A DNA stretch of 64,000 nt. Source: Parcubacteria group bacterium (lineage in GTDB: Bacteria > Patescibacteriota > Patescibacteriia > UBA2169). Under the pieces are notes generated by a model. That model made no database searches. It was not told the DNA's origin and was given only the letters and a program-made list of their open reading frames with translations. A program made the position numbers and the translations under genes. The stretch is taken from NCBI GenBank assembly GCA_016181765.1, contig JACOYR010000006.1, positions 31,664-95,663 of the forward strand. Reading direction: 5' to 3'. Position 1 is the first letter of the stretch. Each line of letters starts with the position of its first letter. Shown here piece by piece: positions 6,982 through 62,995 of the stretch.

Positions 6982-7020
6982 CGGGATGGTAAGATGATAC
7001 TAAAATGGTTTTGTCTTTGC

Positions 7021-7147
7021 GGTTTCTCGCTTGGGCCCGAGCGTAGCGAGGGTTAAGCGAGAAACCGAGAGGAGTAGGCGGATGAAGGGTGGAGCGGGCG
7101 AGCGCAAGCTCGCACGCGCAACCCGCAATCCGACTACGACGAGACGA
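7021..7147 (+). ncRNA. candidate structured RNA element (copy A) immediately 5' of tRNA-Gly; unassigned family
   Basis: 10-bp hairpin ggtttctcgc/gcgagaaacc enclosing conserved loop ttgggc...gttaa; conserved gagaggagtaggcg and ccgactacgacga motifs; internal GCAA-tetraloop hairpin; family of 4 with covarying stems. Confidence 0.45.
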
Positions 7148-7221
7148 GCGGGTATCGTATAGTGGCAATACCACAGCTTTCCAAGCTGTTGCCGGGGGTT
7201 CGATTCCCCCTACCCGCTCCA
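7148..7221 (+). tRNA. tRNA-Gly (anticodon TCC)
   Basis: Acceptor gcgggta/tacccgc, anticodon stem acagc/gctgt, loop tttccaa, T-arm ggggg-ttcgatt-ccccc, CCA encoded. Confidence 0.9.
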
Positions 7222-7850: not shown

Positions 7851-8627
7851 ATGAAAACATCTTTTAATGAAAAACAGTTAGAAATTTTGACAGAGCTTGG
7901 ACTTAGTAAAATCCAGGCGATTTTGTATTTAACCTCGCTAAAACACGGAATATTATCTGTTTTGGAATTATCTAAAATCACCAAGATAAATAGACAACAA
8001 ATTTACTCAGAAGCAGAAAAATTAGTTGATCTTGGAATTTACGAGCTGACGCGGAAGCAAGGAAGAAAATATATCCCCGCAAATCCAGCGAAATTAGTAA
8101 AAGTTGGAAAGAAAAAAATTGATGAGACCGAAAAAATTTTAACAAAGTTGTCGGTAATCTTGCCTGAATTTGAGGCTTTTTCAGAACCAAAGAAAAATAA
8201 AGTTGTTGTGAAATATTTTCAGGGTTTGCCAAAAATTAAAGAAACGTATGAAGAAGAATTGGCGGCTTCTAAAAATACAGAAGTTTTATCTCTTGCCGGT
8301 TCAATTGACAATATTTTTGAATTTTTCACTGAATCATACTGGGATAAGTGGAATAAAAAATTTATAAAACATGACTCAAGAAGTCGGATGCTAGTCCACA
8401 ATTCTGATATTGCTCGCAAGACCGCCGAGGATGACAAACGATACAAACGAGAAACTCGGTGGCTTCAGGATTTTCCTCTTAAAGTAAATATTGATGTTTT
8501 CAATAATACTGTTCTTATTGTCTCTTTTCACGACGAAATTGCTATTTGGATTGAAAGCCATATGTTGGCACAATCCTATCGCATAATGTTTAATACTCTT
8601 TGGGAAGTCGCAAAACCCTTCAAATAA
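7851..8627 (+). CDS. TrmB-like HTH transcriptional regulator (low-GC)
   Basis: N-terminal winged-helix pattern LTELGLSKIQAILYLTSLKHGILSVLELSKITKINRQQIYSEAEKLVDLGIYE; about 33% GC versus about 60% flanks. Confidence 0.5.
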   Translation: MKTSFNEKQLEILTELGLSKIQAILYLTSLKHGILSVLELSKITKINRQQIYSEAEKLVDLGIYELTRKQGRKYIPANPAKLVKVGKKKIDETEKILTKLSVILPEFEAFSEPKKNKVVVKYFQGLPKIKETYEEELAASKNTEVLSLAGSIDNIFEFFTESYWDKWNKKFIKHDSRSRMLVHNSDIARKTAEDDKRYKRETRWLQDFPLKVNIDVFNNTVLIVSFHDEIAIWIESHMLAQSYRIMFNTLWEVAKPFK

Positions 8628-8791
8628 TAAAAATGTTGTAAAGAAACTTACAACTTTTATACCTTAAATTTCCTTGTATTTACTGACTTATTTGGCGCCT
8701 TCATGGCGTTTTTTCTTTTTTTATTACGCGAATTGGCTAATCGTGAAAAAATCATAGTGAGCAGTACAAACCGCAAACAAAGGAGATTGTT

Positions 8792-8992
8792 ATGCCGCCA
8801 AGTGGATTCAGTGAGAAAGCCGTGAAGGGCGCCCTTGTCTTCGTGCAAAGTTGTTACGAAGACCTGCTGGAGGAAGTTCGCTCCGGAAAGCACGCAAGCT
8901 ACGAGGAGGGTATCGAGTTCGAGATCACACAGATCGAGAAAGCCCTCATAAAGCTCCACATCGACGCCGAGGGGAACCTCGTCGAGCGATAA
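8792..8992 (+). CDS. small hypothetical protein (66 aa)
   Basis: Strong SD aaaggagattgtt before ATG; terminator-like hairpin plus T-run at about 9010-9045. Confidence 0.4.
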   Translation: MPPSGFSEKAVKGALVFVQSCYEDLLEEVRSGKHASYEEGIEFEITQIEKALIKLHIDAEGNLVER

Positions 8993-9121
8993 ATTCAACA
9001 GACCCGAGCAAGTCTTAAAACTGCTCTTTTTTATTTGTCTAAATTTTCATACGGGTTGGCGAGGTTTTATTGATGGACATGTTTAAGGTATGCTACCATA
9101 CATGCATAATCACAAACTCCT

Positions 9122-9856
9122 ATGAAACAAAAAATGCTGTCAGCCATATTTATCCTGCTCTTCCCGCTCTTCGGCGTTGCGTACTACTACAAGCTGCTGG
9201 GAGAAAGCACGGACATTGATAAGACGTTCCTGACCCTCTCAACATTCCTATTCGCGCTCTTTACCGGATTTTTTATTTCACGCCAAGCCAGCCGGTATGG
9301 TGAGATACGCAGGCTGACCGCTGATTTTGACGGCAACATGTCCGGCATCTACCGCTTGTTCCAGCATCTGGGAAAAGACGCGCAACACGCGTCCGGAGGC
9401 ATCATCAAAGAGTACTACAAAAAAATAACCAAAAACGGCTGGGACTACTCATTCACCCATAAAACAACCACCATCACCGACCTGCATGCTCTGCTTGAAA
9501 AAACCACCGACAAAAACACGGGCGGCAGCATGGCAAGCATGGCCGCATCCCGGATTATAGTAGGCCTGCAGGAACAGCAAAAAACGAGAAAAAATCTGGT
9601 TACCCTGCGCGAAGAAAGGATTCCGGGATTCCAATGGATGCTCATCTGCATCCTTACCGCAATTCTCGTGCTCACGGTTTCCGCGATCCCGTCAGCGGCG
9701 ATTGTGCTCGGCTCCGCCGTAAAGGCCGCGTTCATCGTATCCATCCTGGTGGTGGTGGCCCTGCTGAAACAACTAGACAATCTTACGCTGTTTACGGGCG
9801 CTATCGGCGAACACTCGGCGCGGGATGTGGTTGAAATTATTGAGGGGAAAAAATAA
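9122..9856 (+). CDS. hypothetical membrane protein (DUF4239-like topology)
   Basis: Two N-terminal and two C-terminal hydrophobic helices flanking a soluble middle. Confidence 0.45.
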   Translation: MKQKMLSAIFILLFPLFGVAYYYKLLGESTDIDKTFLTLSTFLFALFTGFFISRQASRYGEIRRLTADFDGNMSGIYRLFQHLGKDAQHASGGIIKEYYKKITKNGWDYSFTHKTTTITDLHALLEKTTDKNTGGSMASMAASRIIVGLQEQQKTRKNLVTLREERIPGFQWMLICILTAILVLTVSAIPSAAIVLGSAVKAAFIVSILVVVALLKQLDNLTLFTGAIGEHSARDVVEIIEGKK

Positions 9857-9866
9857 TCGCAGTCTT

Positions 9867-10619
9867 ATGCTCGCCTACGCAATCATCGCAACACTCGCCG
9901 TAAGCCTCATCTCGCTCACCGGCATCCTGCTCCTCGCAAAGGAGGCGCACGCAAAAACATGGATCAAGAGGCTCATCGGGCTTGCCATCGGAACCCTGCT
10001 CGGAGCCGTGTTTTTTGACCTCCTGCCCGAAGCCATGGAATCGTTTGATGAGCCGCACACCGCATCTCTGATTATTCTTGCGGCAATCGTGGGGTTCTTT
10101 GCCATAGAAAAAGCAATCCACTACCACCACTGCATGTGCGATGACGAGGAAAAAGGGCACCGCAAGACCCACCTCATCATAAACAACCTCATCGGCGACG
10201 GACTGCACAATTTTGTTGACGGCACTATTATCGCGAGCGCGTTCCTGGTGGATGTACGGCTCGGCATCAGCGCCACGATCGCGGTTGCCTTGCATGAAAT
10301 TCCGCAGGAAGTTGCCGACTTCTCCATTCTGGTGTATGCCGGAATGTCGCGGCTCAAAGCAGTGCTCTACAATCTGCTCTTCGGCCTGACGAGCGTGCTC
10401 GGCGCAATCCTGGTGTTCGTCTTTTCCGACTCCGTTGAGAGCCTGGTGCCCATACTCCTTGCGGTTGCAACCGGAAACTTCCTGTACCTTGCCATGGCAG
10501 ATCTGGTTCCTGAACTGCACCACGAGCAGAACCCCCGTAAAGTCTGGATGCAGCTGGTGTGGGTTGGTTTGGGAATTCTGATCTTGTATGCCATCGGCCA
10601 AGTGGCGGGGAACGAGTAA
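9867..10619 (+). CDS. zupT: ZIP family zinc transporter (ZupT-like)
   Basis: HNFVDG and HEIPQE metal-binding motifs; 8 predicted TM segments. Confidence 0.8.
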   Translation: MLAYAIIATLAVSLISLTGILLLAKEAHAKTWIKRLIGLAIGTLLGAVFFDLLPEAMESFDEPHTASLIILAAIVGFFAIEKAIHYHHCMCDDEEKGHRKTHLIINNLIGDGLHNFVDGTIIASAFLVDVRLGISATIAVALHEIPQEVADFSILVYAGMSRLKAVLYNLLFGLTSVLGAILVFVFSDSVESLVPILLAVATGNFLYLAMADLVPELHHEQNPRKVWMQLVWVGLGILILYAIGQVAGNE

Positions 10620-14211: not shown

Positions 14212-15630
14212 ATGCTGACTGAACAGCGCATCGCAAAAAACACCCTGTACCTGGCCACAGGAAAGGTGCTCTCAACCGGCCTCGGCGTATTGACCGTGGC
14301 ATTGCTCTTGCGGTATCTGTCGGTTGATGACTACGGCAGGTACACCACAGTGCTTGCATTTATCCTGCTCTTCGGCACGTTTGTTGATTTTGGGCTGAAC
14401 CTTACCACCACCCAGGACATCTCACTGCCCGGCACTGATGTTGAGAGGACCATTTCCGCGATATTCACCTTGCGCCTCTTGGTGAACATTGTTTTGGCGC
14501 TCTTGCTGCCGGTTATTCTGCTTGCGTTCCCGTATGAACAAACCGTCAAGAACGCGATTTTGATTTCATCGGTGCTGTTTTTTACGTCTTCCTTGTTCCA
14601 GGTGCTTGCGAGTTATTTCCAGAAAGAACTGCAGGCAGGTAAAGTCGCGTTCGCGGAACTTGTGGGGCGGGTTGCGCTGCTTATGACAACTATGACAGCG
14701 ATTTACTTTGGGTTCTCATTTATTGAAATCATGCTCACCATTGTTGCCAGCTCTTTAACCCAATTCTGGGTGTTGGTGCGGTTTACGGCCCGCGCCATCA
14801 AACTGGAACTGGTTGTTGACCGAGCTATCTGGGCGCGCATCATATCAAAAACCTGGCCAATCGCTTTGTCTGTGATTTTCACGACCATTTACTTTAAGGG
14901 TGATGCTATCATCCTCTCGTTGACCAGGCCGTACCAGGATGTGGGCATCTACGGGGCAGCGTACAAAATCCTGGAAGTGCTGATAACCGTTCCCATCCTG
15001 TTCATGGGCTTGGTATTACCCCTGCTCTCGCGGCAGTTCAGCCAGAATGATACAAAAGGATTCAACAGCACCATCCAAAAGGCATGGGACGCGCTGGTGT
15101 TAGTGACCGTCCCCCTGGTGGTGGGAACCCTTATCCTTGCTGAACCCATAATGACACTCATCGCGGGCAGCGGATACGAGCCTTCAGCCGGCGTTCTTCG
15201 CATCCTTATTGTGGCTGCGGGGTTCATCTTTTTGGGCAGCCTGTTTGCTCACGCCGTGGTTGCCATTGGAAAACAGAAGCAGATGATTAAGTACTACGCG
15301 CTCGCGGCCGCTCTGGCTGTGATCTTGTACATCATCTACATTCCGGCCTACACCTACTATGCCGCGGCAGGCGTAACCGTGCTCTCGGAGTTTTTGATTG
15401 CCCTGGCAGCAGGAATCATGGTGTGGCGCGCATCCTGGTTCAAGCTTTCTCTAAGAGGATTGTTAGCATCACTCGGTGCGAGTACTGTGATGGGAGCAGT
15501 CCTGTACGCGCTCGCGGGCCAGAATGTGCTGGCGGCACTGCTCGCGGGTACTGCCGTGTACGGCCTTGGGGTGTGGGTAATGCGGTCGCAATTCTCATTT
15601 GTCGGGTATGAGCATGCGGACCATCGGTAA
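14212..15630 (+). CDS. polysaccharide/oligosaccharide flippase (Wzx-like, MOP superfamily)
   Basis: 472 aa, about 12-14 TM helices; N-terminal LYLATGKVLSTGLGVLTVALLLRYLSVDDYGRYTTV typical of polysaccharide biosynthesis (PST) proteins. Confidence 0.75.
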   Translation: MLTEQRIAKNTLYLATGKVLSTGLGVLTVALLLRYLSVDDYGRYTTVLAFILLFGTFVDFGLNLTTTQDISLPGTDVERTISAIFTLRLLVNIVLALLLPVILLAFPYEQTVKNAILISSVLFFTSSLFQVLASYFQKELQAGKVAFAELVGRVALLMTTMTAIYFGFSFIEIMLTIVASSLTQFWVLVRFTARAIKLELVVDRAIWARIISKTWPIALSVIFTTIYFKGDAIILSLTRPYQDVGIYGAAYKILEVLITVPILFMGLVLPLLSRQFSQNDTKGFNSTIQKAWDALVLVTVPLVVGTLILAEPIMTLIAGSGYEPSAGVLRILIVAAGFIFLGSLFAHAVVAIGKQKQMIKYYALAAALAVILYIIYIPAYTYYAAAGVTVLSEFLIALAAGIMVWRASWFKLSLRGLLASLGASTVMGAVLYALAGQNVLAALLAGTAVYGLGVWVMRSQFSFVGYEHADHR

Positions 15631-16570
15631 AACGCGCGACCCGTGGGCGCAGGCCGTACAGGCGAGTATTCCGGGCGCGGCCAAAACAAAAACGGTCCTG
15701 CTTGTCGGAAGCGCGGCGCAAATTTTTGCTACGCTGTTTTTCTGGATTGCCGGTTACCGGATTCTCTGGCTGGGGAGCCACAACGCACCTGCCGGCATAA
15801 AGGGTATTAAACCCTGTGTTAGCTCCTCGGCTCGGAAATGGAAAAGATTACTTTTCCATTTCACTCGCCCTACGTCGCTAATAACAAAACAGCTCATGCG
15901 CATTACAAGCCACGCAGCGCATGCAATCCTCGCCCCGAACCAGGCAATTGAAGCCCAGTATCTGAAAGCCGGGATTTCTGACAAAAAACTCTCACTCATC
16001 TATCCCCCGTGCGAAACTGAAACGCTTGATGCGCACAAGGACGGTAACGCATTTACCATTGTTTGCGACGGCGAAACCGGCATAGAGTATGGTTTGGGCA
16101 TGATTATGCGCGCTGTCCGGGACGCCCAAGACATCCTCGGAAATATACGGCTCGTCATCGGCGGCACCATCACTGACCGCGGCCGCATTGAGTGGCTTGC
16201 CAAGGAACTTGGGCTCTCGGACTCGCTCAAGCTCGTGCCCGCGCGGGGGTATGATTGGATTGCGCAGGGTGACGTATTTTTGTTCATGCGGAATGGCAGT
16301 GGCCAGATTCCGCTTTCCTTGGCGCACGCCCTGGCATATGGCAAGCCCATCATCACTAATGACGCGCTCAATCACCGCGAATTTGTGGTTCACCGCAAAA
16401 ACGGCATCCTGCTTAAGGATGCTAATAGCGATATGCTCTCCCAGGCCCTCATCAACTTTGGCCGCAAGCCGGAATGGTTGGCTGAATTGGGGCGCGAATC
16501 CGCGCAATTCGCTGCGGAGCGGTTTAGTCCGGATGCCGTGCGGAAAAAAATTGAGGCGCTGATCCCGTAG
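15599..16570 (+). CDS. GT4-family glycosyltransferase, N-domain largely deleted; hairpin repeat R1 lies in-frame inside the ORF
   Basis: C-terminal half has GT4 patterns (AILAPNQAIEAQYLKAGISDKKLSLIYPP...; E-x7-E region ...GKPIITNDALNHREFVVHRKNGILL); only about 75 aa precede R1 instead of the ~170-aa N-domain; ATG at 15896 right after R1. Confidence 0.55.
   Translation: MSGMSMRTIGKTRDPWAQAVQASIPGAAKTKTVLLVGSAAQIFATLFFWIAGYRILWLGSHNAPAGIKGIKPCVSSSARKWKRLLFHFTRPTSLITKQLMRITSHAAHAILAPNQAIEAQYLKAGISDKKLSLIYPPCETETLDAHKDGNAFTIVCDGETGIEYGLGMIMRAVRDAQDILGNIRLVIGGTITDRGRIEWLAKELGLSDSLKLVPARGYDWIAQGDVFLFMRNGSGQIPLSLAHALAYGKPIITNDALNHREFVVHRKNGILLKDANSDMLSQALINFGRKPEWLAELGRESAQFAAERFSPDAVRKKIEALIP
15821..15890. 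repeat. hairpin repeat R1 (agctcctcggctcgg + 12-bp stem-loop + cactcgccctacgtcgctaataacaaaaca)
   Basis: Second copy at 25737-25804 with 3 compensatory base changes keeping a perfect 12-bp stem (gaaatggaaaag/cttttccatttc vs gatatgaaaaag/ctttttcatatc). Confidence 0.7.
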
Positions 16571-22457: not shown

Positions 22458-23720
22458 ATGCCGTACCTCCTGCCCATCGTAGCGCTGCTCGCACTGCTGG
22501 TTCCCGAACCCGCAGCAGCAGACTCCCTGCTCCGAATCTGCACCGCAACCGGCAACTGCGGGGTGTGCGATGTGGTGGCAACCGCAGTCACGCTCGGCAA
22601 GTGGCTCATTACCGGATCAGCCGGACTAGCCTTGGTGGTGATTGTGTGGGCATCAGTCGGGCTCGCAACGAGCGCCGGAAACCCGGAAAAAATAGGGGAA
22701 GCCAAAAAACAGGTCGTGTGGTCCGTGCTCGGAGTGGGATTGGTGTTCGCGGCGTTCTATTTGGTGATGTGGATTGTCATTGCGTTCGCAAACCCCTCCA
22801 ACCAGTTCAAGTACGCAAAAAATCCGTCCGATGCCGCGGTTGCCGAAACCGGAGGCTTGGCCGGTTTTCTGGGCGGGACCGCATGGTGGAACCTGTGCAG
22901 CGAGGCTGATTTGCGCGCAAACGGCGACCGAGCAAGGTCCGCGGACAATATAACCGCGGACTGCAAGTACTGGGGAGACGGCACGCCCTGCAAGACAAAC
23001 CGCAAGAGCATCTGCTTGAGCGGAACGTGCACGCCAGTCGGAGACAGCAAAGTTCAGGCGAGCATAACCGCGCTCGGCGGATACCCCCTTCCAACAGACC
23101 CGTCCGCGTGCGACTATGTGGCCGCGGTTGACCGCGTGTTTGAAAACTACTCGTGCCAGCCGAATGCCGCATGCAATCCGGAAAAAATAGAAAAGGGGTT
23201 CTGCCCTCCCGGAGGCACAGTGTGCTGCGAGCCGTCCACCTTCACCCCGCGGGTGCGGCCAACCGCGGCCCCAGAGGTTTTGGTTCCAACGGCGCCCGGA
23301 GTACCCGGAGCTGGAGGTGATGAAATGGCAATCCGCACGACACTCGGAAATGCGGGCATAGAAGTCAATAAAGCCCCTTGTCCGGACATCCTTACCTCAA
23401 CCGACTGCACGTCAGTCGCCGGACTGTCGCAGAGCACGGTTAATAAACTGATTGAAGCCCACACCACATACAACGGGCGCATCTACATTACCGGAGGGAC
23501 CGAGCGAGGCCCCCATGCCCAAAACACCACGCACGGCAATCAGAACGTGGTTGATATCCGCAACAAGCAAGAGGCGCGAGATGCCCTGGATCAGATGGGG
23601 CTCGTGCGCATGACCTCGTTTTCAAACGGCTATGCGAGGGGCTCCAACTGGTACATCTGCGACACCAACGGCCAGGCTGTAAGCTGTGGTACTGCAAGCC
23701 ACTTACACGTAGAATTTTAA
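22458..23720 (+). CDS. pilin-like (TrbC/VirB2-type) N-terminal domain fused to Cys-rich linker and C-terminal M15/VanY-like zinc peptidase-like domain
   Basis: N-terminus ...VTLGKWLITGSAGLALVVIVWASVGLATSAGNPEKIGEAKKQVVWSVLGVGLVFAAFYLV resembles the downstream pilin paralogs; C-terminus has ...ITGGTERGPHAQNTTHGNQNVVDI and terminal ASHLHVEF (SxHxxGxAxD-like and HxH motifs). Confidence 0.5.
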   Translation: MPYLLPIVALLALLVPEPAAADSLLRICTATGNCGVCDVVATAVTLGKWLITGSAGLALVVIVWASVGLATSAGNPEKIGEAKKQVVWSVLGVGLVFAAFYLVMWIVIAFANPSNQFKYAKNPSDAAVAETGGLAGFLGGTAWWNLCSEADLRANGDRARSADNITADCKYWGDGTPCKTNRKSICLSGTCTPVGDSKVQASITALGGYPLPTDPSACDYVAAVDRVFENYSCQPNAACNPEKIEKGFCPPGGTVCCEPSTFTPRVRPTAAPEVLVPTAPGVPGAGGDEMAIRTTLGNAGIEVNKAPCPDILTSTDCTSVAGLSQSTVNKLIEAHTTYNGRIYITGGTERGPHAQNTTHGNQNVVDIRNKQEARDALDQMGLVRMTSFSNGYARGSNWYICDTNGQAVSCGTASHLHVEF

Positions 23721-23737
23721 CCAACCCTAGAGAGCCT

Positions 23738-24088
23738 ATGATCACAAAACTATTCTTCACCAGCCTCGCTATCCTGCTCCCCGCGGCACAAGCCCTGGCA
23801 CAGAACAGCTACGGCAGTGCCGATCTCAATCCGCTCGGAAGAATTGAGGGCCCGCAGGAGCTCTATGGCCGCTTTTTGCAATTTTTCCTCGGGTTCGTTG
23901 GGGTCGGCGCGCTCGGGTACTTCATCATCGGCGGCATTATACTCTTGATGTCCCAAGGGAACCCTGAAAAGGTAAAAATGGGCAAGGACACGCTGGTCTG
24001 GGCAATCATCGGCATGTTCGTGGCGTTCGCAAGCTACATCATCCTGCGGTTCGTGCTGGAGATCATCATCACCCCGACCGGCGCGTAG
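23738..24088 (+). CDS. pilin-like small membrane protein P1 (TrbC/VirB2-type architecture)
   Basis: Signal peptide, short variable region, then two-TM core ...GGIILLMSQGNPEKVKMGKDTLVWAIIGMFVAFASYII. Confidence 0.6.
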   Translation: MITKLFFTSLAILLPAAQALAQNSYGSADLNPLGRIEGPQELYGRFLQFFLGFVGVGALGYFIIGGIILLMSQGNPEKVKMGKDTLVWAIIGMFVAFASYIILRFVLEIIITPTGA

Positions 24089-24174
24089 TTATCAACAGAG
24101 TGATTTTGCAAAAAATGCCGCAGTGTTGTATAATTCATGCATCATAAACCAATTATTTATTAAACTTTGATACT

Positions 24175-24696
24175 ATGATTACGCGAACAACAAAACTGGC
24201 ATGGAAAATGATTTTGAGCGGGTTGTTTTCCGCAAGCTTCCTGGCGCTCGCGCTTGTTCCGGCTACAACGTCTGCCGCCGTAGGTGACGACTGCACGGAC
24301 ACCAAATCGTGCCCCACCGGGGGAGAAGTGTGCATCCGCAACGCTAATGACGGAACTCCCGGAGATGCAACTGATGCCTTTTCTTTCGTCTGCACCACCC
24401 CGCAGGCCACCCAGTATGGTTTAGGCGAGTTTACTGATGTCGGTCTCGGCCAGACCCAGGACCTCAAGGGCTCTATCGCGAACATCATCAACATCATCCT
24501 CGGATTCCTCGGGATTGTGGCGGTCATCATCATCCTGGCCGGCGGATTCAAGTGGATGACAGCCGGAGGCAACGAGGACAAGGTCGGCGAATCGCGGCAG
24601 ATGATCATCCAGGGCATCATCGGATTGGTGGTGGTGTTTGCGGCCTGGGCAATCGCGAGCTTCGTGGTTTCCAACCTCCAATCAGCAACCACCTAG
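24175..24696 (+). CDS. pilin-like protein P2 with Cys-rich N-terminal ectodomain
   Basis: Conserved core IINIILGFLGIVAVIIILAGGFKWMTAGGNEDKVGESRQMIIQGIIGLVVVFAAWAIASFVV. Confidence 0.65.
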   Translation: MITRTTKLAWKMILSGLFSASFLALALVPATTSAAVGDDCTDTKSCPTGGEVCIRNANDGTPGDATDAFSFVCTTPQATQYGLGEFTDVGLGQTQDLKGSIANIINIILGFLGIVAVIIILAGGFKWMTAGGNEDKVGESRQMIIQGIIGLVVVFAAWAIASFVVSNLQSATT

Positions 24697-24727
24697 CCGC
24701 CTCCCCCCTCTCTCCTGCCTATGCACA

Positions 24728-24763
24728 ACCCCCGCCAAATCAGCGGGGGTTGTTTGTTGCGTC
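24728..24763 (+). terminator. rho-independent terminator after P2
   Basis: caacccccgc-caaatca-gcgggggttg + tttgttg; followed by TGGTATACT box at 24777-24785 before P3. Confidence 0.5.
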
Positions 24764-24814
24764 CAAATCCTGTTTTTGGTATACTATACACACTGTTATT
24801 ATCCACAAAGGTCT

Positions 24815-25528
24815 ATGATGAAAACTATAAGCATTTTGGCGTCTGGGGCCGCATTTTCAATCCTGCTCCTCCTTGCGCCATCGGCAACAAATGCCGCTCC
24901 TGTTGATGAAGATGGGGTCTGTCAGCTTTTTCCGGTTACCGCAGACGAAGCATGCGGGCCGGGTTTGGTATGCGAACAAACGCCGACAAGCGCCGCGGGC
25001 CAAGGAGTGTGTTGTGCGCCGGGGTCAGACAACTGCCGTTTCGGGTTGGGAGAACAATCCACGTTCACAACCCTGGGTTTGGGCAAAAATGATGACCTTA
25101 AGGGGACTCTGGCGACCATTATCAATATAGCGCTCGGGTTCCTTGGCATTATTGCCGTGATTATCGTGATGTTCGGGGGGTTCAAGTGGATGACTGCGGC
25201 TGGAAACGAGGAGCAGGTGGGAGAGGCGCGGAAGCTGATCGTGGGGGGCGTGGTCGGACTGCTGGTGATATTCATGGCATGGGCAATCGCGAGCTTTGTG
25301 GTATTATTACGCCTCGCTATACAACCATATGCACCACACCATGACGCCACGCGCCGTTCAAGCCGCAAAATGCATGCTTGCCACGAGCATGCTGGTTCTG
25401 CTCGCTGTTGCAATCGCGGCACCTTCGTCAACTGGCGCGCAAGTTGCGGATCCCCGGGCTGCGGACCAGCAGTATGGCCTGGGAAGCGCCAGCAGCTTCA
25501 CAAATGTCGGCCTGGGCAAAGAGGATGA
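24815..25528 (+). CDS. pilin-like protein P3; conserved end is at about 25303 but no stop codon follows, so the ORF reads into the next gene in +1 frame
   Basis: Core ...IINIALGFLGIIAVIIVMFGGFKWMTAAGNEEQVGEARKLIVGGVVGLLVIFMAWAIASFVV then non-pilin-like tail; 3' 210 nt nearly identical to P4. Confidence 0.55.
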   Translation: MMKTISILASGAAFSILLLLAPSATNAAPVDEDGVCQLFPVTADEACGPGLVCEQTPTSAAGQGVCCAPGSDNCRFGLGEQSTFTTLGLGKNDDLKGTLATIINIALGFLGIIAVIIVMFGGFKWMTAAGNEEQVGEARKLIVGGVVGLLVIFMAWAIASFVVLLRLAIQPYAPHHDATRRSSRKMHACHEHAGSARCCNRGTFVNWRASCGSPGCGPAVWPGKRQQLHKCRPGQRG

Positions 25529-25757
25529 CCTTAAGGGGACTCTAGCGACCGTCATCAACATAGCGCTCGGGTTCCTTGGCATCATTGCCGTGATTATCGT
25601 GATGTTCGGAGGGTTCAAGTGGATGACTGCGGCAGGCAACGAGGAGCAGGTGGGAGAGGCGCGGAAGCTGATCGTGGGGGGCGTGGTCGGACTGCTGGTG
25701 ATATTCATGGCATGGGCAATCGCGAGCTTTGTGGTAAGCTCCTCGGCTCGGATATGA
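25341..25757 (+). CDS. pilin-like protein P4
   Basis: Signal peptide MTPRAVQAAKCMLATSMLVLLAVAIAAPSSTGA; same core as P3; stop codon TGA lies inside repeat R2. Confidence 0.65.
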   Translation: MTPRAVQAAKCMLATSMLVLLAVAIAAPSSTGAQVADPRAADQQYGLGSASSFTNVGLGKEDDLKGTLATVINIALGFLGIIAVIIVMFGGFKWMTAAGNEEQVGEARKLIVGGVVGLLVIFMAWAIASFVVSSSARI

Positions 25758-25804
25758 AAAAGAATACTTTTTCATATCACTCGCTCTACGTCGCTAATAA
25801 AACA
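25737..25804. repeat. hairpin repeat R2 (copy of R1) between P4 and P5
   Basis: agctcctcggctcgg-gatatgaaaaag-aata-ctttttcatatc-actcgctctacgtcgctaataaaaca; supplies P4 stop and ends 5 nt before P5 ATG. Confidence 0.7.
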
Positions 25805-25809
25805 ATGCT

Positions 25810-26208
25810 ATGCCGATAGTTAAATCGTTTTCCTTAAGAATCAACCTGATCGTCGCGGCGGGCATGCTCGCATTCGCGATTCTCGCGCCGGTTCCGGCGC
25901 TCGCCCAAACCGACCCGTTCGGCGTGGAAGATGCGGCCAGGATCAACGTGGGCGAAGAGCGGGACCTTAAATTTGCCATTGCGAACATCGTGAACGTAGT
26001 ACTCGGATTTTTGGGAATCCTTGCGGTCATCATCATCATGTATGCGGGATTCAAATGGATGACCGCGTCCGGAAACGAAGAGCAGGTGGGCGAAGCCCGA
26101 AAAATGCTCTTGCAGGCGGTCATCGGCTTAATCATCATCATGGGAGCCTGGGTCATTATAAACTTCGTCACCGGAGAATTCGGCAGAGCGGTCCAGCTTG
26201 AAAACTAA
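25810..26208 (+). CDS. pilin-like protein P5
   Basis: Core NIVNVVLGFLGILAVIIIMYAGFKWMTASGNEEQVGEARKMLLQAVIGLIIIMGAWVIINFV. Confidence 0.65.
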   Translation: MPIVKSFSLRINLIVAAGMLAFAILAPVPALAQTDPFGVEDAARINVGEERDLKFAIANIVNVVLGFLGILAVIIIMYAGFKWMTASGNEEQVGEARKMLLQAVIGLIIIMGAWVIINFVTGEFGRAVQLEN

Positions 26209-26236
26209 CCGGCCCCGGGCCGCTTACGCAACACGT

Positions 26237-26905
26237 ATGACCGCACGCCGCACTCTCATCGTAGCACTCCTCGTTTCCGGATTGGCGGGATTCGCGGCAA
26301 GCCCGCACCCGGCATTTGCCCAGCGCAGCGCCGCCGGGGAAAACGCGCTCAATTTTTTGGATGCGACCGCGGAAAAGGGCGGGCTCTCAAGCGGCATCAA
26401 AAACGCGGGATTCAGCAGTGAGGACGCGGTGCTCGGCATTGTGGGCAACATCATCAACGTCATCCTTGGATTCGTGGGAATCATCTTCTTTGTCCAGATG
26501 TTCTACGCGGGCTTCAGGTGGATGTCGTCCGGCGGCAACGAGGAGGTCGTAACCGAAGCCAGGCAGACCATCAAGAGCGCAGTCATCGGCATTGCGGTGG
26601 TGTTTGCCGCGTTCGTGGTTACGAACTTTACCTTGAATCAAATCGCAAGCATCACTGGGCCCACGCGGCCATCCGGGTTGCCCCCTGAAGATGAGAGCTA
26701 TGACCCAAGTTTAGATGCCCCGGGCGGAGACTTAAATTTCGGCGAACTACCTCCGCCGCTTGGGACATGCATCTATCCAAAAAGCGGCGAATGTGATGCC
26801 GGAAACACCGGGTGGACTGACCTGCAAAGTGATGTATCTGAAAATGCTTGCATGACTCTCGCTGCTTCGGCTTGTGGCGACCCTGATTTGCACGACTGGT
26901 ATTAA
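26237..26905 (+). CDS. pilin-like protein P6 with C-terminal Cys-rich tail (alternative start 26198)
   Basis: Signal peptide MTARRTLIVALLVSGLAGFAASPHPAFA; core GFVGIIFFVQMFYAGFRWMSSGGNEEVVTEARQTIKSAVIGIAVVFAAFVV; tail with 5 Cys. Confidence 0.6.
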   Translation: MTARRTLIVALLVSGLAGFAASPHPAFAQRSAAGENALNFLDATAEKGGLSSGIKNAGFSSEDAVLGIVGNIINVILGFVGIIFFVQMFYAGFRWMSSGGNEEVVTEARQTIKSAVIGIAVVFAAFVVTNFTLNQIASITGPTRPSGLPPEDESYDPSLDAPGGDLNFGELPPPLGTCIYPKSGECDAGNTGWTDLQSDVSENACMTLAASACGDPDLHDWY

Positions 26906-26911
26906 TATACT

Positions 26912-27340
26912 ATGAAATACGCCGCTCTAATATCACTATTCTTGGCAACCCTGTCTATAACTCTGTTTTCTTTTCAAGTCGTGGCTCATGCCCAAAATAC
27001 TGATACCAAACTCGCGAGCGCGGTTGGCGATGCCCGTGGAAAACTCAATGCCATTGGCTCAATCACAGGCTTGGGACGGGTTGACGTTTCAACTGACGCT
27101 GGTCTGTACGAAAAAATCGCGGCAGTCATCAATATCCTGCTCGGGTTTGCGGGCGTAATTGCGACCATCTATATAATTGTTGCGGGAATCCAGTGGATTA
27201 CGGCAAGCGGCAATGAGGAACAGGTTACCGAAGCGCGCGGAAACATAAGGAACGCGGTCATCGGCTTGGTGGTTATATTCCTCGCGTTTGTCATCACCAA
27301 TTTCGTCACCAAATCACTCATTGACGTAATCGGCGGCTGA
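26912..27340 (+). CDS. pilin-like protein P7
   Basis: Core INILLGFAGVIATIYIIVAGIQWITASGNEEQVTEARGNIRNAVIGLVVIFLAFVITNFV. Confidence 0.65.
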   Translation: MKYAALISLFLATLSITLFSFQVVAHAQNTDTKLASAVGDARGKLNAIGSITGLGRVDVSTDAGLYEKIAAVINILLGFAGVIATIYIIVAGIQWITASGNEEQVTEARGNIRNAVIGLVVIFLAFVITNFVTKSLIDVIGG

Positions 27341-27356
27341 CGCTAAAAACTTCCCT

Positions 27357-27989
27357 ATGAAAATCTTTCTCACAGCCATTGCCTTAACAGGCCTCCTCGC
27401 AGCCGCGGCTCCGGCGCACGCGGTATCCGGCGTCAACCAGCTCAAGAACAACCTCGGCATCATCGGAACCGAAACCGGGCTCGGCACCCAAGGGGACTCA
27501 AGTCTTCCGGAAAAAATCGCGGCAATTGTGAACATAGCGCTCGGGTTTGTAGCGCTCATCGGGGTGATCATGATCATCTACGCGGGCTTTAAGTGGATGA
27601 CAGCCGGCGGCAACGAGGAGCAAATAAAAGAAGCCAAAGGCCATATCCGCAATGCGGTCATCGGCATTGTCATTATTATGCTCGCGTTCGTAATTGTCAA
27701 TTTTACCGTGAACAAGCTCTCGGAAACCGTGGGTGTGGGCGAGGGCGGAGGAGGAGGGGGAAACGTCATCAGCGGACTTTGTGAATTTGATGTTGGCGGC
27801 GGGCTTATGTTCTGCGTACCTCGGTCAGAATCAGAGTGCCAAACCCTTGGGGGAACCTATAACGCGCAGTGCGAAAAGCAGACTTACTGCAGGTGCGCAA
27901 GCGGATGCGGGGCAAACAACTGCCTTATTATGACCGAAAATGCATGCGAAAGGAAGAGTGGAGCGCTTAGCGACGCGCCCTGTAATTGA
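27357..27989 (+). CDS. pilin-like protein P8 with Gly-rich linker and 10-Cys C-terminal module
   Basis: Core IVNIALGFVALIGVIMIIYAGFKWMTAGGNEEQIKEAKGHIRNAVIGIVIIMLAFVIVNF; GEGGGGGGN linker; CEFDVGGGLMFCVPRSESECQTLGGTYNAQCEKQTYCRCASGCGANNCLIMTENACE. Confidence 0.65.
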   Translation: MKIFLTAIALTGLLAAAAPAHAVSGVNQLKNNLGIIGTETGLGTQGDSSLPEKIAAIVNIALGFVALIGVIMIIYAGFKWMTAGGNEEQIKEAKGHIRNAVIGIVIIMLAFVIVNFTVNKLSETVGVGEGGGGGGNVISGLCEFDVGGGLMFCVPRSESECQTLGGTYNAQCEKQTYCRCASGCGANNCLIMTENACERKSGALSDAPCN

Positions 27990-28043: not shown

Positions 28044-28098
28044 TGACTTTTGTATACACATTGTGTATACTGACCGCATCATCAATCACATCAATCCC

Positions 28099-28431
28099 AT
28101 GATTAAAGACACCACCATCAACATCAGGACAAACGCCAAAATCAAAAAACGAGTAGCCCAAAAAGCGCGCGAGCGAGGCCTTACGCTTTCGGGACTCACG
28201 AATCTGTTCTTCCAGAATTTTGTGCAGAACGAACAAACGCTCATAGACAAGCTTGAGGAGCGCATGTTTGATAACGCCCTGCAGTCAGCGCCCATTAGAG
28301 AGAAGCTTACCCGATCGGATAGCGCGCTGGAAAAAAGACTCGCTGAAGACGCAAAAGATTTGGCGCGGATGCATTTTGATGATCTGCCGTCTGAAGACGA
28401 ATGGGTTGCCATACAGCCATCCATCAATTAA
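28099..28431 (+). CDS. ribbon-helix-helix antitoxin (RelB/DinJ/ParD-like)
   Basis: INIRTNAKIKKRVAQKARERGLTLSGLTNLFFQNFV RHH pattern; upstream of MazF-like gene; ORF-track start 28063 is actually the TGTATACT box. Confidence 0.5.
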   Translation: MIKDTTINIRTNAKIKKRVAQKARERGLTLSGLTNLFFQNFVQNEQTLIDKLEERMFDNALQSAPIREKLTRSDSALEKRLAEDAKDLARMHFDDLPSEDEWVAIQPSIN

Positions 28432-28434
28432 CCT

Positions 28435-28773
28435 ATGGATTTCCACCAAGGCGACATAGCGCTCGCAAACCTCAATCCGACCAGAGGGCACGAGCAAGCG
28501 GGCTTTAGGCCTGTGTTGATCATGCAAGCCAACATCCTCAACAAGCACCTAAGCACGGTCATCATAGCGCCAATCACCACAAATCTTGGTGCCCGAGGAA
28601 AGCTTACCACCTATCTCCTAGCTAAGGATGTATCAGGGCTTGACTATGATTCGGTCGTGCTCGTCCATCAAATACGCGCGCTTGACAAACAGCGATTAGA
28701 GAAAAAAATAACGAGCATATCTCACGATGAATTCCAAAAGATAAGAGAGAAACTGCTGTTTGTGTTCGGTTGA
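28435..28773 (+). CDS. MazF/PemK family endoribonuclease toxin
   Basis: GDIALANLNPTRGHEQAGFRPVLIMQANILNKHLSTVIIAPITTN...VVLVHQIRALDKQRL. Confidence 0.75.
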   Translation: MDFHQGDIALANLNPTRGHEQAGFRPVLIMQANILNKHLSTVIIAPITTNLGARGKLTTYLLAKDVSGLDYDSVVLVHQIRALDKQRLEKKITSISHDEFQKIREKLLFVFG

Positions 28774-49879: not shown

Positions 49880-50317
49880 TTATGTTTCTTTTTTTGGTTT
49901 TTGGACCGGGGCAGGTTCATTCTCCCCTGCCTCAACCTCGGTCGCGGACACCGAACAATGGCCGTGCAGCACTGCGCCGGGCTCAATGGAGAGTATTTTG
50001 GTAATGATGTCTCCGGTAATTTTTGCGGATCCGCCGAGCTCAAGGCTGTCTTTGACGGTCACATTTCCGGCAATTTCTCCGCGCACAATTGCGCTCGCAG
50101 ACTCCACATTTGCTTTAATCTTAGCCCCTTCTTCCACTTTTAGGTTGCCTTTGGTCTTGAGGCTCCCATTCACAATCCCCTGCACCAGCACATCCCCGTC
50201 GCTCTTAAAATCTCCCTCAACTTTAACGCTCGGCCCAATAATGGTCTCCACCTCCCCCTCTTTCATTTCAAAGCTTTTTTGTTTTTCTCCCTTGTCGCGT
50301 CCGTTAAACATTGCCAT
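49880..50317 (-). CDS. bactofilin
   Basis: Beta-helical repeat pattern ...IIGPSVKVEGDFKSDGDVLVQGIVNGSLKTKGNLKVEEGAKIKANVESASAIVRGEIAGNVTV. Confidence 0.75.
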   Translation of the reverse strand: MAMFNGRDKGEKQKSFEMKEGEVETIIGPSVKVEGDFKSDGDVLVQGIVNGSLKTKGNLKVEEGAKIKANVESASAIVRGEIAGNVTVKDSLELGGSAKITGDIITKILSIEPGAVLHGHCSVSATEVEAGENEPAPVQKPKKET

Positions 50318-50451
50318 AATAGTGCCCCTTTTAATGATTATAGGTTCCTATAGTATACTAAAATGGGCATGCATTGTAAAAATAACGCTATTACGGTATA
50401 ATTCGCCTATATTTTGCTCGGATGCGGAACCCCAAACCCCAACTCTGACGC

Positions 50452-50528
50452 GGGCCCTTAGCTCAGCTGGCTAGAGCGCTTCCATGGCATGGAAGAGGCC
50501 ACCGGTTCAAATCCGGTAGGGTCCACCA
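50452..50528 (+). tRNA. tRNA-Ala (anticodon GGC)
   Basis: G3:U70 pair present; anticodon stem cttcc/ggaag, loop atggcat; CCA encoded; preceded by aactctgacgc. Confidence 0.85.
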
Positions 50529-50609
50529 TAATTTGTCAAAATTGTCAACTTTTTCATGATGGGTTGAACAAAATTTACATGGGTTGAACAAAAATTATGA
50601 ATCTGACGC

Positions 50610-50685
50610 GTCCTTATAGCTCAATTGGATAGAGCAGTGGCGTCCTAAGCCATTGATCCAGGTTCAAGTCCTGGTAAGGACACCA
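50610..50685 (+). tRNA. tRNA-Arg (anticodon CCT)
   Basis: Acceptor gtcctta/taaggac, anticodon loop gtcctaa, T-arm ccagg-ttcaagt-cctgg; preceded by aatctgacgc. Confidence 0.8.
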
Positions 50686-50731
50686 GACAAATTGTTCAGT
50701 GTTAAACTTTAAAAATACCTCTTTCTTACAA

Positions 50732-50847
50732 ATTTTCTCTTGGGCTCACCGCAGGCGAGTTAAGAGAAAATTTGAGAGGAGTAGGCGTGCGGAGGGTGTA
50801 GTCAGTGCTGTAAGGCACAGAAGAAACCCGCAGCGCGACTACGACGA
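50732..50847 (+). ncRNA. candidate structured RNA element (copy B) immediately 5' of tRNA-Ala(CGC)
   Basis: attttctc-ttgggctcaccgcaggcgagttaa-gagaaaat-ttgagaggagtaggcg...gcgactacgacga then tRNA. Confidence 0.45.
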
Positions 50848-50923
50848 GGGCCTGTAGCTCAGTTGGTAGAGCGCCACATTCGCATTGTGGAGGCCAGGAG
50901 TTCAAATCTCCTCAGGTCCACCA
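50848..50923 (+). tRNA. tRNA-Ala (anticodon CGC)
   Basis: G3:U70 pair; anticodon stem ccaca/tgtgg, loop ttcgcat; CCA encoded. Confidence 0.85.
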
Positions 50924-51318
50924 GACAAGTATTGTTTAAAAAATCCTGACAACATTTGTTGTTAATAGTATGTATTTGAGTTATTCACATGTCCTGTGGA
51001 TTTCCTGTGAGAAAGGCTAATATTAGCCAAATTAAATCTATGTGAATAACTTATCACTTATTTGTTTATTTATTGTGCATATACGCTTATCATCACTTGT
51101 CAGGAAAAATCCTGACAATTTTTATACACACATACTCAATAAGATGCGAATAAATAAATAAGAGTTATTAGTGTTATATTTTTATAAATAAACACTAGTG
51201 TTAGCCTTAAATTTTACTTATTCACCTATTCCACAGTATTATAGTTATTAATATTAGACAGTATTCTAAAATGAACATATAATAAATCATGCTTTGTCTT
51301 TAAATAAACACTTAAAAT
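50924..51318. promoter_or_regulatory. about 400-bp AT-rich (about 28% GC) non-coding region with multiple direct and inverted repeats upstream of trxA
   Basis: aaaatcctgacaa twice; palindrome ggctaatattagcc at about 51013 and again at about 51640 between trxA and trxB; inverted gagttattcaca/tgtgaataactt. Confidence 0.4.
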
Positions 51319-51642
51319 ATGCCAGCGCTAGAACTTACGGACCAAAATTTTAATCAAGAGGTTGAGCAAGTTAAGGGAGTGGTCCTTGTAGATTTTTGGG
51401 CGCCGTGGTGCGGGCCGTGCAAAATCCAGGGCCCCATAATTGATGAAATTGCGGATCAGGCCAAAGATGTAAAAATAACAAAACTCAATGTAGATGAAAA
51501 CCAGGAGTCCGGGTCAAAATATGGAGTTATGAGTATTCCAACAATCATTATATTCAAAGACGGCAAACCAATAGAAATATTAGTTGGGTTACATAAAAAA
51601 GACGATATACAGGCAAAGATTGATATAGTAAAAAATAGCTAA
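51319..51642 (+). CDS. trxA: thioredoxin
   Basis: WCGPCK active site. Confidence 0.85.
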   Translation: MPALELTDQNFNQEVEQVKGVVLVDFWAPWCGPCKIQGPIIDEIADQAKDVKITKLNVDENQESGSKYGVMSIPTIIIFKDGKPIEILVGLHKKDDIQAKIDIVKNS

Positions 51643-51660
51643 TATTAGCCAAAATGTAGT

Positions 51661-52587
51661 ATGGCTAATATATCAAAACTCATTATTATTGGTTCGGGAA
51701 ACGCGGGATATACTGCAGCGATTTATGCTTCACGCGCCCAGCTTAAGCCGATTTTGTTTACCGGGTTTGAGCCGGGCGGCCAGCTCTCACTCACCACTGA
51801 TGTGGAAAACTTCCCCGGGTTCCCAGAAGGCATTCAGGGGCCGGAACTAGTTCAAAGGATGCGCAAACAAGCAGAGCGGTTTAGCACTAACATTATTGAT
51901 AAGGCGGTTGATGGGGTTGATTTTAAGAGCCGCCCGTTTTCGGCGTGGGCTGGGGAAGACCAGTACCAATCAGACGCAGTGATTATTGCAACCGGAGCCT
52001 CGGCCAAGTGGCTCGGCCTTCCTTCGGAGCAGCGTTTGCGCGGCAAGGGCGTATCAAGCTGCGCCACGTGCGATGGGTTTTTCTTTAGGGGCAAGGACGT
52101 GGTGGTGGTCGGCGGCGGCGATGTATCTTTGCAGGATAGTATATTTCTCACTAAGTTTGTTGCGGGCATCACAGTGCTGGTGCGCAAAGACTCATTCCGC
52201 GCGAGCACGTACATGAAGGAAAAAGCAGAGAAAAATCCGAAGATAAAATTTTTAATGAATACCGAAGTTGTTGAGGTGCTTGGAGAAAATTCCGTGTCCG
52301 GCGTGAAAGTTAAAAATAACAAGACCAACGAGGAGTCGGAGATCCTATGCCAGGGCGTGTTTGTGGCAATCGGCCACGCGCCGAACACTGATATTTTTAA
52401 GGGCCAGCTTGAGCTTGATATAAAAGGCTATGTGGTGCTCAAAAACGGCATGATGACGAGCGTCCCGGGCGTGTTTGCGGCAGGAGACGTGCATGACCAC
52501 GAATACCGCCAGGCAATAACCGCGGCAGGGGCGGGCTGCGCCGCTGAAATAGACGCAGAGCGCTGGTTGGAAAAACAAGAACCATAA
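51661..52587 (+). CDS. trxB: thioredoxin-disulfide reductase
   Basis: CATCDG redox-active disulfide, FAD/NAD Rossmann motifs GSGNAGYTAAIYA and VVGGGD. Confidence 0.85.
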   Translation: MANISKLIIIGSGNAGYTAAIYASRAQLKPILFTGFEPGGQLSLTTDVENFPGFPEGIQGPELVQRMRKQAERFSTNIIDKAVDGVDFKSRPFSAWAGEDQYQSDAVIIATGASAKWLGLPSEQRLRGKGVSSCATCDGFFFRGKDVVVVGGGDVSLQDSIFLTKFVAGITVLVRKDSFRASTYMKEKAEKNPKIKFLMNTEVVEVLGENSVSGVKVKNNKTNEESEILCQGVFVAIGHAPNTDIFKGQLELDIKGYVVLKNGMMTSVPGVFAAGDVHDHEYRQAITAAGAGCAAEIDAERWLEKQEP

Positions 52588-62770: not shown

Positions 62771-62798
62771 TATACTTTTTTTGTCTTAAATATACAAA

Positions 62799-62914
62799 AT
62801 TTCCGTTGGGCTGAGCGAAGCGAAGTTAACGGAAATTTTGAGAGGAAGAGGCGGACGAAAGCCGAAGCAGGCTCGCGCAGTGAGCATGCGGAGGCTGTAG
62901 TCCGACTCTGACGA
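62799..62914 (+). ncRNA. candidate structured RNA element (copy C) 5' of a truncated tRNA-Gly-like sequence
   Basis: atttccg-ttgggctgagcgaagcgaagttaa-cggaaat-tttgagaggaagaggcggacgaaag...ggctgtagtccgactctgacga. Confidence 0.45.
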
Positions 62915-62985
62915 GCGGGTATCGTATAATGGCTATTATGCCACCTTGCCAAGGTGGAGATACGGGTTCAATTCCCGGCTACAGT
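62915..62985 (+). pseudogene. tRNA-Gly(GCC)-like sequence lacking the 3' acceptor strand and CCA (truncated or pseudo-tRNA)
   Basis: First 13 nt identical to tRNA-Gly(TCC) at 7148; anticodon arm ccacc-ttgccaa-ggtgg and T-arm acggg-ttcaatt-cccgg intact; after cccgg comes ctacagtgatgg instead of tacccgc-t-cca. Confidence 0.5.
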
Positions 62986-62995
62986 GATGGTGCGT

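Follow-up and report, generated by a model that had tools for sequence, protein, structure and literature searches.

What kind of sequence would be found, nearly unchanged, both inside a glycosyltransferase gene and at a junction of two pilin genes of the same bacterium? This question was raised by a 64,000-nt stretch of DNA from a Parcubacteria group bacterium (assembly GCA_016181765.1, contig JACOYR010000006.1, positions 31,664 to 95,663; hereafter the window), which carried two copies of a hairpin repeat on the same strand, 9.9 kb apart. Our analysis suggested, with a probability of roughly 0.7, that both copies belong to a family of small non-coding, non-autonomous mobile elements, which is scattered through the genomes of Patescibacteria (the Candidate Phyla Radiation, CPR) and probably moves as folded single-stranded DNA.

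Analysis of the sequence and searches with its flanks placed the two copies on the + strand, at 15797-15884 (copy A) and 25737-25800 (copy B), with near-identical flanks around a 12-bp hairpin, in agreement with an earlier sequence-only reading of the window. The 15-nt left flank AGCTCCTCGGCTCGG was present in the window only at 15821 and 25737, where 0.07 occurrences were expected by chance, and the 23-nt right flank CACTCGCYCTACGTCGCTAATAA only at 15862 and 25778 (0 expected); the identity of the repeat pair was 88% over 72 nt. Each 12-bp stem enclosed a loop of 4 nt, with the arms at 15835-15846 and 15851-15862 in copy A and at 25751-25762 and 25767-25778 in copy B. In RNA folding, copy A had z-scores of -4.9 (+ strand) and -4.7 (- strand), and copy B had z-scores of -2.9 (+ strand) and -4.2 (- strand). 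Three compensated stem differences had been counted in the sequence-only reading. Two of them were indeed matched on the opposite arm (A-U to U-A, and G-C to A-U), while the third, a T to A change, was located in the loop and had no pairing partner. The reading was also right that an element lay at copy A, but its true 5' end was at 15797 (ATAAAGGGTATTAAACCCTGTGTT), 24 nt beyond the start first reported, and the additional part held a second, small hairpin. A covariance model (R1) run with its filters off matched only copies A and B in the window (99.7 and 93.4 bits), and an nhmmer search of the window with a long-form profile returned the same two copies. The sequences flanking copy A were unrelated to those flanking copy B. 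Over 66 core positions, copy A was 97% identical to a copy in L019, 95.5% to a Yonathbacteria copy (L021), and 89% to copy B; the two copies of the window were not each other's nearest relatives.

Copy A was a full short-form element and a precise in-frame insertion of 84 nt (15797-15880, + strand; ATAAAGGG...GTCGCTA) in a glycosyltransferase gene (15608-16570, + strand; 320 aa, Pfam Glycos_transf_1), to which it added, at positions 64-91 of the protein, the 28 residues I-K-G-I-K-P-C-V-S-S-S-A-R-K-W-K-R-L-L-F-H-F-T-R-P-T-S-L. It was identified as an insertion because the orthologous DNA and proteins were without these 84 nt and 28 residues. Seven orthologues of 289-292 aa (P0002-P0009 comparison), with identities of 68-76% to the window protein, aligned from their first residues and lacked exactly the residues encoded by the element. 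In the DNA alignment, the insertion point was GCCGG(C/T)|AT(A/G)ACAAAACAG; the filled site of the window was GCCGGC-(ATAAAGGG...GTCGCTA)-ATAACAAAACAG and the empty site of L129 was GCCGGT|ATGACAAAACAG, and the site of L130 was empty as well. The empty site carried AT(A/G)A once (ATGA in L129). In the window, the ATAA directly 3' of the insertion (15881-15884, + strand), which corresponds to a TTAT located 5' of the element on the - strand, repeated the ATAA of 15797-15800 and is either a target-site duplication or the retained target. Syntenic loci were gathered by looking for relatives of the substrate-binding protein encoded nearby, and no copy of the element was found by the covariance model in L129-L132 or in 467 kb of syntenic metagenome relatives. 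Close relatives were present in the Hainich and Ga0210050/57 groundwater samples.

The frame was open through copy A from 15599 to 16570. Most members of the family had a TGA in this frame inside the hairpin, and copy A had a TGG with a compensating C on the other arm, which bore out the earlier claim that the stem had been changed to remove the stop; the TGG variant was also present in a few intergenic copies elsewhere. Read-through of the whole element was rare and was found for copy A and possibly for L065 (1-2 of 79 copies). The ATG at 15896, previously proposed as a start codon following the element, was an internal Met of the glycosyltransferase that starts at 15608, so the spacing of 5 nt before an ATG that seemed to be shared by the two copies is coincidental. 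The start at 15608 created a 23-nt overlap with the flippase gene, which was also present in L129. The deposited annotation contained only the 224-aa C-terminal part of the protein, starting from the internal ATG at 15896 (NCBI protein P0001). A 5' truncation of the gene at the element, as hinted at by a partial Pfam match, was excluded by the orthologues, which aligned across the whole N-terminus. In an AlphaFold model based on a shallow alignment, the inserted residues appeared as coil between a strand and a helix with low confidence (mean pLDDT of 58, and 25-31 in the insertion). A public (Logan) unitig carrying the flippase gene terminated inside copy A, as expected because the element is repeated.

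The most plausible interpretation of copy B (25737-25800, + strand) is that of a truncated element, located at the junction of a pilin expansion specific to this lineage. It lacked everything 5' of AGCTCC, including the small hairpin (ATAAAGGGTATT...), and its nhmmer match was limited to positions 133-199 of the profile. The pilin gene P4, a paralogue of recent expansion (T4SS_pilin; 25296-25757, + strand; likely start ATG at 25329), entered the element at AGCTCC and stopped at the TGA in the stem, with the last six codons (SSSARI) and the stop derived from copy B. The location of this TGA (25755-25757) inside the 12-bp hairpin (25751-25778, + strand; AATA loop), seen in both the sequence and the fold, confirmed the earlier observation; copy A had TGG at the equivalent codon. 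The 3' end of copy B was GCTAATAA, and the ATG of pilin P5 (25810) followed after 9 nt, which places copy B in the 5' leader of this gene. Over 240 nt, the C-terminal halves of P4 and P3 were 93% identical up to GTGGTA, at the base before the element. Counterparts of P3 and P4 were absent in the syntenic L077 and L130, in which the P2 orthologue, a terminator, and a promoter-like region led directly to the P5 orthologue. In L077, the site matching the 3' end of copy B was ...TATATATAA|CGCTATG, which contained ATAA.

Several other features of the pilin array were observed. The array (22458-27989, + strand) consisted of nine tandem T4SS_pilin/TrbC-like genes, the copy number of which varied between close relatives, and its first protein was 420 aa long, with a pilin N-terminus and a long Cys-rich extension. 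Pilin P3 (24809-25528, + strand) had no stop after its conserved C-terminus (...WAIASFVV) and ran on for about 75 more codons of unrelated sequence across the start of P4 in another frame. The likeness of the 240-nt C-terminal parts of P3 and P4 resembled gene conversion. The 3' tail of P3 (25300-25345, GGTATTATTACGCCTCGCT...) was considered as a degenerate element and rejected, as nhmmer and blastn-short matched only the two known copies.

The sequence-only reading had allowed for the outcome that only two copies exist, explained by a segmental duplication. Instead, a search for the exact 20-nt motif of the 3' flank (CACTCGCNCTACGTCGCTAA) in one genome per prokaryotic species (596 Gb) revealed 73 loci in about 44 genome assemblies, with 79 copies in the 73 loci; by our own arithmetic, 19 fixed bases would give about 4 matches by chance in a collection of this size. 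This multi-copy, widespread family and the absence of the copy A insertion from the orthologues upheld the suggestion of that reading that a miniature mobile element was copied between loci. Most of the motif-bearing assemblies were labelled as Patescibacteria/CPR and a few were filed under other labels, with the labels including Yonath-, Vogel-, Lloyd-, Kaiser-, Zambryski-, Doudna- and Komeilibacteria, the Parcubacteria group, and metagenome-assembled genomes (MAGs) labelled Saccharibacteria. The motif in L022, a Deltaproteobacteria MAG, had none of the remaining parts of the element around it and probably matched by chance. The richest genome, one of the Yonathbacteria, contained 8 copies with the exact motif, and head-to-tail tandem copies were found on some contigs (L013, L019, L030, and L033). 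A dense cluster of elements in both orientations was observed at 1-420 of L030 (CAYJVZ010000004.1), with diverged variants in which the outer stem was ATAATTGC/GCAATTAT instead of the usual TATTAGC/GCTAATA and the loop sequences were different; these variants suggested that the outer stem covaries and that sister subfamilies exist. A scan of the window and 16 long-form loci against Rfam 15 at the gathering threshold, on either strand, returned only tRNAs and no family that matched the elements, and an E-value scan of a long form against Rfam showed nothing relevant. No match was found when a viral contig collection was scanned with both flanks. Within Rfam and the searchable literature, no account of such a CPR repeat was found, and the family is apparently undescribed.

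Comparison of copies within the same genome showed that the similarity begins at ATAAA(A/G)G and stops at GCTAATA(A), and the ends across the family were ATAAAGG... and ...GCTAATAA. The elements were non-coding and about 65 to 270 nt in size. The short form, represented by copy A, measured 88 nt counting the flanking ATAA and was composed, in order, of ATAA, the small hairpin, an outer stem TTAGC/GCTAA that enclosed an internal loop and the variable hairpin, and an ATAA outside the 3' end. In copy A, the small hairpin AGGGT-ATTAA-ACCCT was located at 15801-15815 (+ strand) according to DNA folds and comparison of the family. The 5' half of the outer stem, TTAGC, and the conserved unpaired strand TCCTCGGCTCG following it occupied 15819-15834 (+ strand; folds and alignment of 25 copies), and the conserved 3' strand ACTCGCCCTACGTC, the motif used for the collection scan, was followed by the other half of the stem, GCTAA (15877-15881), within 15863-15881 (+ strand). 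The internal loop inside the outer stem was conserved and asymmetric, with 11 nt on one side (TCCTCGGCTCG) and 14 nt on the other (ACTCGCYCTACGTC). The 12-bp hairpin with its ATTA loop (15835-15862, + strand) formed the variable structural core, in which the pairing was kept and the sequence was not. Among 25 copies of equal length, compensatory double changes were found at 10 of the 12 stem pairs and 96.7% of the cells were paired, values that no shuffle or register slide approached. Across the family, the hairpin between the flanks varied in sequence and was 15-67 nt long. The 5' flank was near-invariant in the 25 aligned copies, although the search had selected on the 3' flank only. In long forms, which reached about 270 nt, additional covarying hairpins were located within the small hairpin and, in some cases, within the loop; the small hairpin was, for example, GGGC...GCCC in L003, or AGGTT...AACCT around a CCTCGGGG-CAAG-CCCCGAGG hairpin.

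ATAA was present at both ends of the element, and in one subfamily the end tetranucleotides differed (5' ATAT, 3' ATAA). Direct reading showed no terminal inverted repeats, since one end was ATAAAGGGTATT... and the reverse complement of the other was TTATTAGCGACG..., and no complementarity between the two conserved flanks. On the - strand, the element was directly preceded by TTAT, which was separated from the foot of the large hairpin by 18-19 nt, and it finished in ...CCCTTTAT; on this strand, the boundary next to the large hairpin was thus TTAT-TAGCGACGTAG... and the opposite boundary was ...GGGTTNAATACCCTTTAT. An integron attC site was also considered. The arrangement GTTAGC...GCTAATAAC of the element was the reverse of the R''(RYYYAAC)...R'(GTTRRRY) order and complementary R and L boxes were not found, and this candidate was rejected.

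The two strands of the element were not equivalent in folding. Of 45 whole elements, 38 folded better as the - strand and 3 as the + strand (mean difference of 5.5 kcal/mol; Wilcoxon p = 3e-7), and 35 G.U pairs were counted in the stems of the - strand compared with 15 in those of the + strand. The loop motif GCTTCGC, which is GCGAAGC on the - strand, was about 14 times enriched in the elements; GCGAAGC is a very stable DNA mini-hairpin and is better known as such than as an RNA motif. In 46 of 70 cases (p = 0.012), the 8-kb flanks had a negative GC skew when read along the + strand of the element, indicating that the better-folding strand tends to be the G-rich strand. The direction of this skew matched, weakly, that of elements that use the lagging-strand template.

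These features are consistent with an element that would move as a folded single strand, the active strand being the reverse complement of the + strand. Insertion would take place beside TTAT (ATAA on the + strand), often at the TAA stop of a gene. In 11 of 78 copies, the stop of a long sense open reading frame (ORF) was precisely the TAA within the 5' ATAAAGG. Since the stop codon is restored in such cases, many insertions would do no harm, given the preference for ATAA/TAA. The enzyme would be encoded elsewhere and act in trans. An HUH/Y1 single-strand transposase of the IS200/IS605 or RAYT type is the leading candidate, and a structure-specific site-specific recombinase with ATAA as the crossover core may be an alternative. 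The confidence in these statements differed: that the element is a mobile interspersed element was considered highly probable, while the HUH route specifically was regarded as a tentative assignment, somewhat less likely than its opposite.

Several observations weighed against movement as a folded single strand or limited the evidence for it. No transposase or recombinase gene was found beside any of the 79 copies or in the 64-kb window. The pairing rule between guide and cleavage sequences of IS608 was not evident at the presumed left end, where GAGT/AGTG and TTAT showed no complementarity; at the right end, a possible AATA was read by us 2 nt off register in the family consensus only. The small hairpin was 4-5 nt from the other end of the element, compared with 10 nt in IS608. 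Only one empty site was resolved to the base, and it is equally well explained by a target duplication of 3-4 bp (ATA/ATAA) made by another kind of transposase, and a duplicated ATAA or a recombination core fits it equally well. An RNA transcribed from the - strand would account just as well for the better folding of this strand. The GC-skew bias was modest (2:1) and was confounded by gene orientation and the non-independence of the copies, and the invariance of the 3' flank was partly an artefact of its use as the search query.

The element could instead be primarily a structured non-coding RNA gene or module made from the - strand, such as the guide-RNA scaffold of a transposon-encoded nuclease (of the TnpB omega-RNA type) or a protein-binding RNA, with its spread being secondary. 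The strong covariation of the hairpin, the insertion of variable-length stems at fixed places, the conserved internal-loop sequences, the G.U-richer and better-folding - strand, and the long forms in which several hairpins end at a fixed boundary are all in favour of such an RNA. We consider it unlikely, however, in view of the lack of any Rfam match on either strand, long forms included, and of a nuclease or transposase gene adjoining any copy. In addition, no conserved promoter-like sequence was seen outside the element, truncated, tandem, and in-gene copies were tolerated, and the enriched GCGAAGC is known mainly from DNA. Searches for tnpA and tnpB in the 8-kb flanks of the 73 loci and in the window, as well as a Pfam search of ten unassigned window ORFs, revealed no transposase, and the ORFs abutting the presumed left-end side were not transposase-like as judged from their N-terminal residues, without a Pfam scan. 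When 501 neighbouring ORFs were clustered, no family was present in more than 5 loci and all were housekeeping. A slightly less probable alternative is a conventional miniature inverted-repeat transposable element (MITE), a deletion derivative of an insertion sequence with a DDE transposase that duplicates a preferred target (TA, ATA, or ATAA). The element resembled a MITE in being short, non-coding, highly structured, multi-copy, and absent at the orthologous site and in syntenic relatives, with ATAA at both ends and AT(A/G)A once in the empty site; the ATAA, however, was constant across the family and could belong to the element or be a retained target. Nevertheless, it is not a classical MITE because it failed the inverted-repeat test. 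The subfamily with different end tetranucleotides (ATAT and ATAA) also spoke against a MITE, and the asymmetric folding of the strands would not be expected from an element that is cut and pasted as a double strand. Another doubtful possibility is that an undescribed mobility system, either single-strand or RNA-guided, operates across the CPR, with the family as its non-autonomous partner. The invariant internal loop framed by the hairpins would then be read by a conserved enzyme with a new activity (HUH, IS110-like, or TnpB-associated), near-identical recognition sequences would be shared through horizontal exchange among distant ultra-small bacteria, and the long forms would carry a scaffold resembling a guide RNA that ends exactly at the element boundary.

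The sequence-only reading had also suggested a portable expression module, in which a stop, an mRNA-stabilising or processing hairpin, and a start context would be selected together at gene junctions. Copy B did provide a stop and was located 9 nt before the next ATG, a long ORF terminated at or within the element in 28 of 78 copies, and two of the three frames of the - strand were closed in all 64 cores, with the other four frames closed in 56-86%. A consensus that closes all six frames was considered as well and was rejected, as it held in only 17 of the 64 cores. Based on a crude ORF-based gene call for 54 copies, the flanking genes were arranged as ++ in 14, -- in 19, +- in 11, and -+ in 10 cases. 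The orientation of the element relative to these genes was random, which argues against a cis-acting role of the RNA on the sense strand, and 10 of the 54 copies were located between divergent genes. Neither hairpin was reported by a terminator scan; the stems were A/T-rich and followed by CACTCGC with no U-tract, and an intrinsic terminator was rejected. Since copy A was located within a coding sequence and the ATG following it was an internal Met, and since the better-folding strand was antisense to both host genes and the syntenic relatives managed without the element, the stop, hairpin, and start cassette and the mRNA-stabilising or processing hairpin are both very unlikely. A role as a recombination site, also suggested in that reading, is possible. 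Local segmental duplication, or gene conversion from one locus to the other, would account for two copies on the same strand, 9.9 kb apart, one of which abuts the P3/P4 gene-conversion tract. We judged this explanation already refuted by the unrelated flanks, the presence of the element in about 44 other assemblies, and the closer similarity of copy A to copies from other genomes.

Other features of the window, separate from the repeats, were also recorded. A conserved stretch of about 125 nt was located directly upstream of three tRNA genes (7020-7147, 50727-50847, and 62793-62914, + strand), namely tRNA-Gly at 7148, tRNA-Ala at 50848, and a tRNA reported only by Rfam at 62915. The three stretches shared a compensatory long-range stem (CTCGCTT/AAGCGAG, TCTCTT/AAGAGA, and TCCGTT/AACGGA), all ended in CCGACTACGACGAG, and had no match to an Rfam family. 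Possible identities are a structured leader of the tRNAs, a promoter module, or a relative of the tRNA introns that have been reported for Patescibacteria. The tRNA at 62915-62986 (+ strand) scored 32 bits in Rfam, just over the threshold, was not called by ARAGORN, and may be an atypical or degenerate tRNA beside the tRNA-Leu at 62996. The G+C content decreased at 8001-10000 (0.44) and 50001-52000 (0.42) compared with about 0.55 elsewhere, and the cumulative GC skew turned from falling to rising near 50-52 kb, at the tRNA cluster; the skew turn and the dips could mark a replication origin or terminus, or foreign DNA. Two small adjacent ORFs of 122 and 112 aa were found at 28063-28773 (+ strand), the second of which presumably begins like a MazF/PemK-type toxin according to our own reading of the residues; in L130, a HigB/HTH pair was located elsewhere in the syntenic block.

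The genomes of CPR bacteria are about 1 Mb in size, streamlined, and thought to be poor in repeats. An element shared among such organisms would serve as a marker of gene flow among uncultivated lineages. It also caused assembly breaks and mis-annotation, as shown by the 320-aa glycosyltransferase deposited as a 224-aa fragment, and such elements may be a systematic cause of truncated genes in the annotation of CPR MAGs. A handle for finding the mobilising enzyme is provided by the covariance model together with the base-exact empty site.

Among known systems, the in-frame insertion of copy A has its nearest functional analogue in the Rickettsia palindromic elements (RPEs), small palindromic selfish repeats that can enter protein genes in frame and be translated as an extra peptide (review PMC10969869). 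Both occur in the reduced genomes of host-dependent bacteria, and copy A, with 84 nt and 28 residues, kept its ORF open in the same way; as with RPEs in Rickettsia, selfish DNA can thus become part of proteins and gene ends in CPR lineages. RPEs are as a rule inserted in frame, whereas this was the exception here, and they belong to one genus of another phylum, whereas the present family spans many CPR lineages. The likeness is a functional analogy only, and no sequence relationship is expected.

In anatomy, the element was closest to the hairpin elements derived from IS200/IS605, including the PATE-type MITEs mobilised by a Y1 HUH TnpA. In IS608, insertion takes place 3' of a TTAC situated 19 nt to the 5' side of the left hairpin, and cleavage 10 nt 3' of the right hairpin, with no gain or loss of DNA (PMC3201880). 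The CPR element similarly lacked inverted repeats and had sub-terminal hairpins at both ends, a tetranucleotide about 19 nt 5' of the foot of the left hairpin, as in IS608, next to which it may insert, with or without duplication of the target, and strand-asymmetric folding, with the structured strand weakly tending to be the G-rich strand. It differed in the lack of evident complementarity between guide and cleavage sequences at the left end, in the right-end spacing (4-5 nt instead of 10 nt), in the lack of a tnpA or tnpB near any copy, and in its large conserved internal loop and the outer stem enclosing the left hairpin. The resemblance to the REP/BIME/REPIN sequences mobilised by RAYT proteins was looser. 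These are also interspersed imperfect palindromes with covarying stems, which form clusters or mosaics and are often located at gene ends, and a GTAG was present 5' of the hairpin on the structured strand of the CPR element (GACGTAGAGCGAGTG-hairpin). However, this GTAG was 8 nt from the stem instead of adjacent to it, the richest genome contained 8 copies instead of hundreds, the clusters were head-to-tail (L013, L019, and L033) instead of inverted doublets, the element was longer with two hairpins, and no RAYT gene was identified. The pneumococcal BOX, enterobacterial ERIC, and neisserial Correia elements shared with it a modular number of hairpins, a high degree of structure, and occasional fusion to ORFs. 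Correia and ERIC have terminal inverted repeats and duplicate a TA target. All three are confined to one genus or family, whereas the CPR element crossed several candidate phyla. We place the family, as a new addition, among the small non-autonomous palindromic mobile elements, a known kind in which its host range and its modular structure stand out.

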